This document shows, one piece after another, positions 2,255 to 5,087 of a DNA stretch of 64,000 nt. Both the position numbers and the translations under genes were made by a program. Source of the DNA: an uncultured delta proteobacterium (GTDB lineage Bacteria > Desulfobacterota > Binatia > UBA9968); NCBI GenBank assembly GCA_963737905.1, contig CAVTUQ010000040.1, forward strand, positions 1 through 64,000. Direction: 5' to 3'. Position 1 is the first letter of the stretch. The number at the start of each line of letters is the position of its first letter. The notes under the pieces were generated by a model, which was not told the origin of the DNA, searched no databases, and saw nothing but the letters and a program-made list of their open reading frames with translations.

Positions 2255-3613
2255 TCAGAGGACAACGGGTTTCTTGACGAGGCTTTCGGTAACGAATGGG
2301 AAATTGTACGCTAGCCAGGCGTCGATCCCGCCTTCGAGCGGGCGAACCCTGGTGATTCCTTTGGCTCGCAGCAGCAGCGCCACCCGGGCGCTGGTCGCTT
2401 CGTTGGGTCACGAGCAGTAGAGAACGACGTCGCGATCCCGGGGAATCTCTCCGTGGCGCTCTTCGATCTCTTCCATGGCTATACGAAGCGCGCCCGGGAT
2501 CATCTGAGGAAACGCCTCGATATCCATGGGCTGGCGCAAGTCCACGATTGAAATGGTTTCTCCGCCCGTGAGTTTGTCCATGAGTTCTTTCGGAGTGATG
2601 CGCGCAATGCGCAGCCGACGGAGAAAGCGTCGCCGCTGGATGAACTTCCACAAAACATAAGCTGCCAAACTTCCGGCCAGGACTGCGACTAGCCAACCGC
2701 CCCAGCGCAGTGCGATCCGCTCGAGTTGATCGCTGAAAATTAAGCCCAAGCTCGTGACGGTGACGACCCAGAAGAGTCCGCCCAGGGAATCGAAGATCAG
2801 GAAACGTCGCACGGGCATGCGAAAGACTCCCGCTAGAGACGGTGCCGCGGTATTGAGGCCGGGTATAAATTTGGCAACGAGCAAAGAACGGACGCCATGC
2901 CGGATGAAAAGGTTCTCAGTCCGCCGCACGCATGAGTCCGGTTCGAGGGAAATGCGGCACAGTAGCTTCAGTATGCGGCCGCCGCGGTAACGGCCTAGAG
3001 AGTACCAGAACAGGTCAGCCAAAATAACCGCGATGAATGCCAAGGCCACCGCGAACGTCAAATTCATCTTGCCGGCACGGGCCAGCGCGCCGGCCGCGAT
3101 CAACAGAGGAGCAGCCGGGATAGGCAGACCCATCTGTTCGAGCAGCACCCACCCGAACAGTAGAGCGTAGCCGTGCCTAATCAGGAAGTCGGCCGCTTGT
3201 TCCAGGCTCAAATCCCGGGAGGAACGGGCTGCCTCGGGCAATACGCTCGCAAAAAAGAAACTAAGGACAGTCAATATCAGCGCCGCAATCGCCGATTCGA
3301 GATAGATCCAATGAGCCTGGGAGCGGAGTCGTTTCTCGGCGCCTTCATCTCCGACCGGCTCTTCGGTGCCGTTCATCTTGCGCGCGCCGCGCGCGGCCAG
3401 AGCGACTCAGGTCTTTTTGCGAGCCTGGGAAATAGCGAGAGTTCCCATCCAGAACGGCAGAAATAGCGCCGAATACCACCAGCGGCTTACATCTGCATTC
3501 GTGAAAATGACCGCCAGGACGACGCCCATGGCGAGCATGGCGACACCCATGAGCAGGCGCTTACGGATTTCCTTTGGCCCGATATTGGCGAGCTCTACCT
3601 TTCCGACATTCAT
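2255..3613 (-). CDS. Probable double selenoprotein, 452 aa (U69, U402): small membrane domain + DedA/VTT + rhodanese (CxU)
   Basis: ORF 3407-3613 reads through TGA (3407-3409) via VALAARGARK in frame into ORF 2408-3376; its TGA (2408-2410) falls in VVLYCS*PNEATSARVALLLRAKGITRVRPLEGGIDAW, which completes the rhodanese domain before TGA at 2255-2257; DedA motifs EQMGLPIP and KFIPGL; a hairpin follows each UGA. Confidence 0.85.
2375..2393 (-). promoter_or_regulatory. Putative bacterial SECIS hairpin for UGA 2408-2410
   Basis: Perfect 7-bp stem CAGCGCC/GGCGCTG with loop CGGGU, starting 14 nt after the UGA. Confidence 0.75.
3376..3401 (-). promoter_or_regulatory. Putative bacterial SECIS hairpin for UGA 3407-3409
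   Basis: Stem GCGCGC-GGC-GCGCGC (3380-3394) starts 12 nt after the UGA; possible lower UCU/AGA pairing. Confidence 0.6.
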
Positions 3614-3803: not shown

Positions 3804-4080
3804 TCATGGCGAAGTTGTGCCCTCTTGCACGCGGAAGTCAGGATCCCAGCCGAGCTCGCGCCGCGCCTTTGCCACTGAAATTAGCGGTGACGGCTCCGCG
3901 ATGTTGTATATTCCCGGCGCCCCTCGGTCGATCGCCAGTGCCGCGGCCAGACGACTCGGGTCGTGAATGAGGGCAAGATCCGTGAGCTGGTGCACCACGA
4001 CGTCTGGCTTAACCTCCAGCATCGCCCGGCTCAATTGCGGCGCGTCGAAGACATCGACAACGATGGGCTGGATCCCCGTG
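3804..4080 (-). pseudogene. Internally deleted NAD-dependent epimerase/dehydratase remnant
   Basis: GIQPIVVDVFDAPQLSRAMLEVKPDVVVHQLTDL joined almost directly to C-terminal AAALAIDRGAPGIYNIAEP...KARRELGWDPDFR; no start, no GxxGxxG, no middle. Confidence 0.7.
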
Positions 4081-4083
4081 CTC

Positions 4084-5087
4084 TCACTTACGATACAGGC
4101 TCTGGATGAAACCGCTTTGATCCAGTTCCCGAACGAAGCTCTGATCGGCGACGTCCTCGAAAGTCAATTTCGTTTTTTCGGCTTTAGAGCCGGCGGTTAC
4201 CTGACTGATCACCGGCTCGATCCCCTCTCGCGTCGGGTAGGGGGTCGAGGCGGTTTTATCGGCATAATAGGCGTAAGTCTCTTCCAGCACCGCAGGCTCA
4301 TTTTCTCTCAAGTATCGCGCCATGATTTTCTTGCTCTCGTCCGGGTGGGTTTTGAAATAGTGAACCCCTTCCACATAAGCGCGGACAAATCTCCTGACCG
4401 CATCGCGATTGCTATTGATGAACGAGCGGGTCGTGGCGATGGAGCCGAAGTCATAATGAAAACCCATATCGACGAGATCCGCCAAGATGCGAAGCCCGAA
4501 TTGCTTGGCCACCAGCAGCGTAGGAGCGCCCAGCAAAGTCGCGTCCACAGCTCCCTGCTTGAGAGCAGCCAGTCTTGTGGATTGGCCGCCGCTCTGTCGA
4601 ACGACACTTTTCCGCTGTCAAGCCCGTCTTCTCGAGAAAATAGCGCGCGGCAAAATCGGTCGTCGACCGAACGTGCTGATCGCCAATTTTTTCCCCCGCA
4701 GGTCCTCGGGCTTTTTAATTTCCGGTCGCGCGACAACCTGAAAAGGAAGCGTAGGCATGACCGAGAGGATAAGCACCGTATCGGCTCCCTTGGCGTGGGC
4801 CTGAATGCTCGGGCCGCTGCCCGTGTTTCCGAGCCTCAAGTCGCCGGCCACCATCGCCTGGGTGATCCGCGAGCCGGACTCGATGTAAATGAAGTCAACG
4901 TCAAGCCCATTTTTCGCCGTGAACCCCGCCTCTTTCGAAATCCCGGGCTGCTATTCATGCTCGTTATGGCATTGTACCCCACCCGCATCTTCTCTAGTTT
5001 CTGAGCGGCAACCGGCTCCCGGAGAATCAACAGTAATAAACCCAAAAGCATCCCGCCCAATACCTTGGAGCCCAATTTTGTAATCAT
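4084..5087 (-). pseudogene. NMT1/SsuA-type ABC substrate-binding protein split by several frameshifts (pseudogene or assembly error)
   Basis: Fragments 4836-5087 (signal peptide, KMRVGY), 4618-4854 (IKKPEDLRGKKLAIS) and 4084-4548 (VRRFVRAYVEG...RELDQSGFIQSLY) lie in different frames. Confidence 0.75.

Follow-up and report, generated by a model that had tools for sequence, protein, structure and literature searches.

The window analysed here, a stretch of 64,000 nucleotides (contig CAVTUQ010000040.1, positions 1 to 64,000 of the forward strand, assembly GCA_963737905.1 of an uncultured delta proteobacterium placed in the Binatia), carries a minus-strand gene at 2255..3613 which, judging by its own sequence and those of its homologs, very probably encodes a genuine protein with two selenocysteine (Sec) residues. 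The protein would join a small N-terminal membrane module to a DedA membrane domain followed by a rhodanese domain. The module itself is a candidate new selenoprotein family with Cys homologs in several phyla. An earlier reading of the window, made from its letters alone (the sequence-only reading), had proposed a 452-aa membrane protein with U69 and U402. That proposal is now supported by the alternation of Cys and TGA codons among homologs, by hairpins in the TGA forms, by selA, selB and selD in the genome and by recurrence of the same TGAs in related genomes.

A single frame with two internal TGA codons

Read on the minus strand from 3613 to 2258, the window translates as a single frame of 452 sense codons. 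Its internal stops are just two TGA codons, as the sequence-only reading had it: codon 69 at 3407-3409 (within QARKKT-TGA-VALAARG) and codon 402 at 2408-2410 (within VVLYCS-TGA-PNEATSA). The features of the gene, in window coordinates, are as follows.

2255..3613, minus strand: whole gene; ATG at 3611-3613, 452 codons with two UGA read as Sec, true stop TGA at 2255-2257
3230..3613, minus strand: N-terminal membrane module, residues 1-~128, delimited by alignment, standalone homologs of ~120 aa and an AlphaFold2 (AF2) model
3407..3409, minus strand: UGA codon 69, read as Sec from the Cys/TGA alternation in homologs
3374..3376, minus strand: internal ATG, codon 80, taken by gene callers as the start of a 322-aa "VTT/DedA" protein (open reading frame 2408..3376)
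3370..3404, minus strand: candidate selenocysteine insertion sequence (SECIS) 1; core GC stem of 5-6 bp with a G-rich loop at 3380-3394, and a possible lower stem pairing 3400-3404 with 3370-3374
2744..3121, minus strand: DedA/VTT domain, residues 165-290 (Pfam PF09335 at 60.6 bits, cut-off 33.9)
2930..2959, minus strand: C219-x8-C228 (LLCRISLEPDSC) in a basic DedA loop, from the alignment of fusions
2309..2596, minus strand: rhodanese domain, residues 340-435 (Pfam PF00581 at 48.7 bits, cut-off 22.2), complete only with read-through of UGA 402
2408..2416, minus strand: active site C400-S-U402 (TGC TCG TGA), from TGA/TGY alternation in DedA-rhodanese loci
2376..2392, minus strand: candidate SECIS 2, hairpin AGCGCC-CGGGU-GGCGCU, 15-16 nt after UGA 402

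A listing of open reading frames under translation table 11 cuts the frame into pieces of 68, 322 and 42 aa, and public annotation does much the same. The anticipated splitting and truncation by gene callers is indeed seen in public calls of 68 aa (P0081) and of 322 to 330 aa, which end exactly at the TGAs. The best 120 public matches to the DedA-rhodanese part are 267-333 aa long and cover 83-84% of the query; all 120 end at the U402 TGA, and such truncated proteins bear the names "VTT domain-containing protein" or "membrane protein DedA". One public protein of 280 aa (P0285) represents the fused gene without the part that runs from helix 1 to slightly beyond U69, as though the gene caller had jumped over the TGA, and is probably an annotation artefact.

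Full-length matches in relatives (81-91% identity) carry the same two in-frame TGAs, which recur in dozens of independent assemblies. Among 21 fused loci from public genomes, 16 are intact with exactly two TGAs, and the other five show contig-end cuts, frameshifts or a TAG. No fused form with Cys at either site occurs among the best 120 public proteins listed; P0299 is frameshifted and is not a Cys-Cys fused form. Conservation stops at the third TGA, 2255-2257, after which no hairpin was noted (that stretch was not folded).

These observations bear on the possibility that the gene is a pseudogene or an assembly error, its TGAs being mutations or miscalls in a Cys gene. Damaged copies do exist in relatives, with an extra TAG (G023) or frameshifts (G014, L084), and partial duplicate 3' ends lie close by in some loci. 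Against this stand the recurrence of both TGAs across independent assemblies, the uniform end of the listed public calls at the second of them, the intact and conserved remainder of the frame and the lack of a Cys fused form among the matches listed, and the explanation is hardly credible.

The N-terminal module and UGA 69

The sequence-only reading described the N-terminal part as a small membrane domain of 68 aa ending at the Sec residue. Alignment, standalone homologs and the AF2 model replace it with a three-helix module of ~125 aa, in which the Sec lies mid-way: an NIGPxExRKRL motif is followed by two transmembrane helices, a KT-U-V(A/V)LAARGxR loop with a short beta-hairpin, and a third transmembrane helix. 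Residues ~10-125 exist alone in relatives as a gene of ~120 aa, with the TGA in its middle and conservation on both sides.

A profile search of 1.84 billion representative proteins returned 1572 relatives of the module at E <= 0.001, 433 of them at E <= 1e-10. In the best 150 homologs the U69 column holds 145 Cys, 2 Gly, 1 Asp and 1 Trp, and the remaining sequence is a 68-aa fragment that ends there. A scan of named-species genomes gave 206 module relatives; codon 69, read in 80 of these loci, is TGA in 50, TGC in 27 and TGT in 3. The sequence-only reading had called for a test of Cys/TGA alternation at both sites, and the alternation is found at each: TGA 50 against TGY 30 at the first (80 loci), and TGA 22 against TGY 5 at the second (27 loci).

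Within the taxonomic family of the window's genome, the module was found in 45 of 90 genomes (43 of 88 when the two unpublished genomes G012 and G465 are left out). Codon 69 is TGA in 49 of 50 family matches, the fiftieth ending at a contig edge before the column. At least 18 family matches, the window's gene included, have an open frame of at least 400 aa, and on our reading these are probably fused in the same way. The module was present in 8 of 151 sampled genomes of the class and, in an even sample of the phylum, in a single genome of 401, the window's own. Most fused forms come from metagenome-assembled genomes submitted as Candidatus Binatia or "Deltaproteobacteria bacterium"; a few bear different labels. 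Standalone forms are labelled Methylomirabilota/NC10, Pyrinomonadaceae, Gemmatimonadales, Zixibacteria, Ignavibacteria, Gemmatales and Polyangiaceae, and the cultured Pyrinomonas methylaliphatogenes K22 carries a Cys-form standalone module. Four fused loci with 74-86% identity (L086, L090, L092 and L098) are labelled Chloroflexota, Verrucomicrobiia, Udaeobacter and Acidiferrales, which is likely to reflect mislabelling or mis-binning.

The module matches no Pfam or NCBIfam model. The Pfam scans covered residues 1-89 at E <= 10 (the HMMER filters drop most matches above ~0.1) and eight Cys homologs at E <= 1. Its N-x-G...R start is one that we take to resemble DUF2892; a DUF2892 or YgaP-like identity was considered and rejected, there being no Pfam match within these thresholds. 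A search of the ESM Atlas returned unnamed hypothetical clusters only, and a cluster look-up only the name "hypothetical protein". The five matches of a homolog search from the Cys homolog P0007 included none with a name or Pfam domain, and a search for related loci from protein P0006 gave no matches.

In Cys-form modules another Cys frequently follows at a distance of nine residues (C-IALAARGx-C), as in 23 of the best 150 homologs and in loci L112-L162. Sec-form modules nearly always have Arg at this +9 position, and its CGC codon forms the 3' arm of the hairpin; the exception is L117, which has both U and C.

The rhodanese domain and UGA 402

Read-through of the second UGA had been expected to supply a missing rhodanese C-terminus, and it does so: the Pfam match then spans profile positions 1-101 of 102. 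Foldseek matches the domain to solved rhodanese domains with a probability of 1.00. The best NCBIfam match of residues 336-440 is NF041203, "rhodanese-related (seleno)protein", at 79.4 bits, under its cut-off of 115; the LYC-x-U active-site motif of that family is present as VVLYCSU.

In the phylum sample, 25 of 401 genomes (the window's own included) have a DedA-rhodanese match at E <= 1e-25. Codon 402 was compared in 27 DedA-rhodanese loci, i.e., the window's own, six from relatives and 20 from the phylum sample, one of which is the same gene again. It is TGA in 22 and TGT or TGC in five, within the motif YC-x-U-PNE or YC-x-C-PNE. The YCSCPNE site that the sequence-only reading gave for DedA-rhodanese fusions is borne out in the Cys forms of these loci as YC(T/D)CPNE.

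A 47-nt segment (2376-2422) that comprises the YC-x-UGA and the hairpin matches on its own inside soil metatranscriptome contigs which diverge on both sides, with a maximum of depth at that position. Other genes for rhodanese selenoproteins may accordingly share a near-identical UGA-SECIS cassette. The window's genome contains another rhodanese-like match with an in-frame TGA (G000:C5:100722-101030).

Hairpins downstream of the two UGA codons

A GC-rich hairpin with G in the loop, 12-14 nt after each TGA, had been noted from the letters alone, and both hairpins are present. The first does start at ~12 nt (core 3380-3394), and the second lies slightly further on, at 15-16 nt (2376-2392). The site-2 hairpin, AGCGCC-CGGGY-GGCGCU with 5 bp, is kept in all 22 Sec forms, wherein four have a compensatory change from C-G to U-A and one a wobble pair; by eye, it is broken in all five Cys forms.

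The site-1 hairpin is less clean. In 12 related sequences a 5-bp core and a lower stem with some double changes were seen. In a count per sequence, which required a correctly placed stem of no fewer than 5 bp and G as one of the first two loop bases, a hairpin of the SECIS 1 type turned up in 26 of the 28 distinct TGA forms of the standalone module versus 6 of 29 Cys forms; counted in a fixed register, the figures are 36/48 and 7/29. Local folding energy is -9.6 kcal/mol in TGA forms and -5.8 kcal/mol in Cys forms. The comparison appears supportive of a SECIS function at site 1, not decisive.

Selenocysteine machinery

The window belongs to contig C40; the assembly totals 6.7 Mb, with a completeness of 87%. 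On contig C29 of the same assembly (G000:C29:71024-75669), selD, selB and selA stand side by side, all above curated cut-offs, and this selD, with one in-frame TGA, is itself a selenoprotein gene. The full Sec machinery that was to be looked for is thus present as regards selA, selB and selD; selC, the gene for tRNA-Sec, was not found in this assembly. All five relatives tested have a tRNA-Sec (73-77 bits). Among genomes from other phyla with a TGA-form module, selA is present in 5 of 5.

A link between the module and the selenium trait was also considered: selA is present in 10 of 10 module genomes, but also in 144 of 151 sampled genomes of the class, and the association is uninformative. In one relative (G032, contig C2; L185 1501-1976) 10 nt separate a tRNA-Sec gene from the stop codon of a standalone Sec-form module, the two genes being convergent, and an integrase-like open reading frame immediately precedes the tRNA. 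No other locus among the five tRNA-Sec loci and the module loci L023-L162 that were scanned shows this adjacency.

Opposing evidence and the case for separate genes

Several results weigh against a two-Sec fusion protein. Taken alone, the hairpins fold no better than shuffled sequences (z -0.77 at site 1 and -1.51 at site 2; 47 and 15 of 200 shuffles, respectively, fold as well), and they count as evidence only because of the comparison with homologs. At site 1, that comparison was framed after the data had been seen and ignores relatedness. RNAalifold on 37 site-1 sequences showed no covariation and gave only three invariant pairs, a result of the one-base difference in register between lineages; moreover, the conserved AARGxR peptide in GC-rich DNA nearly dictates the GCGCG...CGCGC stem. 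Searches for tRNA-Sec by Rfam, ARAGORN and blastn with the relatives' gene came back empty, the best Rfam matches being Leu and Ser tRNAs; because the assembly is 87% complete, we read this as missing data and not as disproof. Most of the gene is represented in soil metatranscriptome contigs, which come from three studies; two of these contigs (X17 record 21 and X16 record 13) span UGA 402 with no change listed there, and none spans UGA 69. Such contigs are in any case weak evidence of transcription, because these libraries can contain DNA.

The genomic distribution adds further points of this kind. The standalone module occurs in genomes without a listed DedA-rhodanese match (e.g., G005 and G025), and DedA-rhodanese is widespread without the module in the phylum sample; since each unit occurs without the other, the two are not mutually dependent. 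Neither the standalone modules nor the fused gene have conserved neighbour genes that hint at a substrate, the sole recurrent neighbour of the fused gene being a common substrate-binding-protein paralog (6 of 17 loci).

Part of this evidence would fit two or three separate genes, with UGA 69 as the ordinary stop of a 68-aa membrane peptide, the DedA-rhodanese protein starting at ATG 3374-3376, and either UGA 402 alone or neither UGA encoding Sec. Public pipelines call the gene in this manner, the pieces would share a frame by chance in one case out of three, the hairpin at site 1 is poorly defined, and no RNA contig joins the two sides of UGA 69. However, the ten codons between UGA 69 and the ATG, together with the 40 that follow, show protein-level conservation among standalone homologs of several phyla; Cys occupies the position in nearly all of the best homologs, and TGA and TGY alternate there. 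Were UGA 69 not read through, the module would also lose its third helix, which AF2 models with a confidence (pLDDT) of 95. Separate genes are, in our estimate, a very remote prospect, and a single gene with two recoded codons is the reading followed below.

The DedA domain

All 22 DedA-rhodanese fusions compared have both cysteines of the C-x8-C motif. Relative to Escherichia coli YghB, in which neither cysteine occurs, the segment constitutes a three-residue insertion. One study (PMC10127716) names residues E39, D51, R130 and R136 of YghB as essential for the flipping of undecaprenyl phosphate. When six fusions are aligned to YghB, E39 is kept in five and R130 is replaced by Lys in all six, while D51 has become Ala, Ile, Gly, Phe or Thr and R136 Asn or Ser, each in 6/6. 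Scores against the NCBIfam equivalog models are 60.3, 44.4 and 62.7 bits, below the respective cut-offs (250 and 300 for UptA, 236 for PRK10847). The loss of D51 and R136, together with the gain of the cysteine insertion, argues for a cargo other than undecaprenyl phosphate.

The domain might still act in a two-Sec protein as a flippase of lipid or undecaprenyl phosphate, of the COG0586 type, with the Sec and Cys residues serving as a regulatory redox switch. DedA-rhodanese fusions belong to COG0586, a subfamily in which the members that have been studied are flippases of undecaprenyl phosphate (PMC10127716); the matches to the NCBIfam UptA and DedA models, weak as they are, point the same way, as do the retained E39 and the conservative change of R130 to Lys. 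The absence of D51 and R136 from every aligned fusion and scores far under the cut-offs of 236-300 speak against it, and the authors themselves call the connection of rhodanese with undecaprenyl phosphate "unclear" (PMC10127716). We regard a flippase as unlikely.

Selenium has been associated with DedA proteins before. A DedA-selenite link is reportedly due to Ledgham (2005). DedA has also been linked to selenite uptake or resistance (PMC11422209).

Predicted structure and topology

AF2 modelled the whole protein, from a 90-row alignment, with a pLDDT of 87.7 and a predicted template-modelling score (pTM) of 0.73; for the module alone (residues 1-130) the values are 95.3 and 0.87. The module model contains helices at 13-39 and 44-66, a short helix at 70-75, a beta-hairpin at 77-86 and a helix at 90-124. 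Rhodanese domains were the sole Foldseek matches of the whole model. A fold search with the module gave no clear solved relative: human TMEM45A came first (Z 7.2, root-mean-square deviation 4.9 over 103 residues), followed by generic helical bundles.

Topology was deduced from the positions of the model helices and the distribution of Lys and Arg. The N-terminus and the U69 loop are predicted to be cytoplasmic, and helix 3 would lead out to the periplasmic side; the first pair of short DedA helices would enter from outside, placing the basic C219-x8-C228 loop in the cytoplasm, and the rhodanese domain would come after a very basic cytoplasmic helix. All five Cys and Sec residues would then lie on the cytoplasmic face. 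Because of this predicted location, the suggestion in the sequence-only reading of a redox relay across the membrane is not favoured.

Proposed mechanism

The protein would be a fusion of two separately existing units, namely the three-helix module, with U69 just after helix 2, and the DedA(VTT)-rhodanese protein with its C400/U402 and C219/C228 pairs. Both internal UGAs would be recoded to Sec by the SelB/SECIS route, each with its own hairpin, and the third UGA (2255-2257) would terminate the protein. The rhodanese domain may be loaded with one atom of sulfur or selenium, or a selenylsulfide may form in it, and an exchange with the DedA loop cysteines and U69 may follow; this thiol/selenol hand-off or redox step would couple to whatever the diverged DedA domain transports. 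The suggested function is drawn from the fusion itself, because the fusion is the only functional clue.

We consider it rather probable that the reading as a whole holds, i.e., one gene for an inner-membrane selenoprotein with two Sec residues that combines the module with DedA-rhodanese and would work on the cytoplasmic side. The more specific proposal of a sulfur or selenium relay at the cytoplasmic face, coupled to DedA-type transport, is put forward tentatively and could well be wrong. A three-station chalcogen relay (U69, C219/C228 and C400/U402) on a DedA transporter, with the module as an undescribed family across phyla, is doubtful as a complete picture.

The same residues could instead be ligands, if the two-Sec protein serves to bind or to export soft metals or metalloids (Hg, As, Cu or Cd). 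Five soft ligands would be clustered, C-x8-C is frequent in Cys-form modules, and a part in resistance to metals or metalloids has been attributed to most transporter proteins that contain Sec (PMC13188914). This role is nonetheless quite improbable: rhodanese domains are sulfur carriers rather than metal sites, and no mer, ars or cop genes occur among the neighbours scanned, those of the fused gene having been clustered only and not scanned by family.

Comparison with known systems

A C-x-U rhodanese, "form 3", is a predicted selenoprotein type in Table 1 of PMC13188914. The rhodanese domain described here resembles it (NF041203, rhodanese_LYCAU) in the placement of C-x-U in the active-site strand and loop. 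The NF041203 model, however, has 126 positions and no membrane part, whereas here the domain forms the C-terminus of a DedA membrane protein.

Fusions of DedA with rhodanese are known as Cys proteins, and their rhodanese connection to undecaprenyl phosphate is called unclear in published work (PMC10127716 and PMC12893004). Such Cys-form proteins (COG0586 plus PF00581, e.g., Pseudomonas aeruginosa PA1209) have the same order, DedA then rhodanese, according to both articles. Those of this phylum have YC(T/D)CPNE and the same C-x8-C as the window's protein. The published fusions differ in being described without Sec and without the N-terminal module (PA1209 was compared by its description).

TsoB (NF045694) is likewise a membrane-bound rhodanese fusion with two Sec residues (PMC13188914, Table 1), but it has a UxxxxU motif, a DsbD-like membrane part and an operon of three selenoproteins; NF045694 did not match the window's protein at E <= 0.1. 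E. coli YgaP is also a membrane-anchored rhodanese, and its rhodanese domain is among the fold matches (ranks 44-45), but its domain order is opposite, with a C-terminal two-helix anchor (DUF2892), and it has no Sec. YeeE/YedE thiosulfate transporters pair with a TusA-like partner. They are alike in concept only, as a membrane transporter of sulfur compounds with a cytoplasmic sulfur carrier, and belong to an unrelated fold and family (PF04143) with no sequence match. Sec-containing YeeE/YedE proteins are listed in Table 1 of PMC13188914.

In the literature we found no description of a selenoprotein that joins DedA and rhodanese, nor, by title or abstract among the papers listed, of a Sec-containing DedA. 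The 119-family catalogue of a 2026 review (PMC13188914) holds no DedA protein, and we recognised in it no small membrane family of the module's kind. The module and the fusion thus appear to be undescribed, as far as that catalogue and the papers listed show. The suggestion in the sequence-only reading that the three-part two-Sec fusion is undescribed stands as regards the module and the fusion, and does not extend to the rhodanese C-x-U type, which has already been catalogued.

Surroundings of the gene and of its relatives

Directly upstream of the gene, at 3804-5087 of the window, lie short minus-strand open reading frames (3804-4034, 4084-4548, 4618-4854 and 4836-5087), which by their appearance may be fragments of larger, possibly broken genes. 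Several relatives have, 1-3.5 kb beyond the intact gene on its downstream side, additional incomplete copies of its 3' end (encoding the rhodanese C-terminus and in some cases including the TGA), at the following positions; among the matches listed, the window's own genome has none.

L084, 7298-7447: partial 3' copy
L087, 8737-8841: partial 3' copy
L091, 7915-8067: partial 3' copy
L093, 8203-8741: partial 3' copy
G023:C315:9864-10109: partial 3' copy

Among the Pyrinomonadaceae (loci L112-L162), the module gene lies ~25 nt downstream of a gene for an HlyD/biotin-lipoyl-like lipoprotein in 36 loci, and in these the HlyD-like gene comes after a gene for an outer-membrane efflux protein (OEP) on the same strand. 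The arrangement is lineage-specific.

Significance

Annotation consistently breaks a gene that is widespread in soil into two truncated proteins, and the N-terminal part of its product belongs to the small membrane proteins, a class that truncation-based searches tend to miss. The gene would also be a natural example in which a single mRNA contains three UGAs in frame, two of them being recoded and the third ending translation. Current work on DedA proteins concerns their role as lipid-carrier flippases. In the present protein, the two Sec residues, the invariant C-x8-C and the lost phosphate-binding residues point to chalcogen chemistry and provide concrete residues to mutate. If the proposed relay is true, this would be the first DedA-family protein with a sulfur or selenium cargo (selenite, thiosulfate or persulfide), and the puzzling DedA-rhodanese fusions would gain a testable function.

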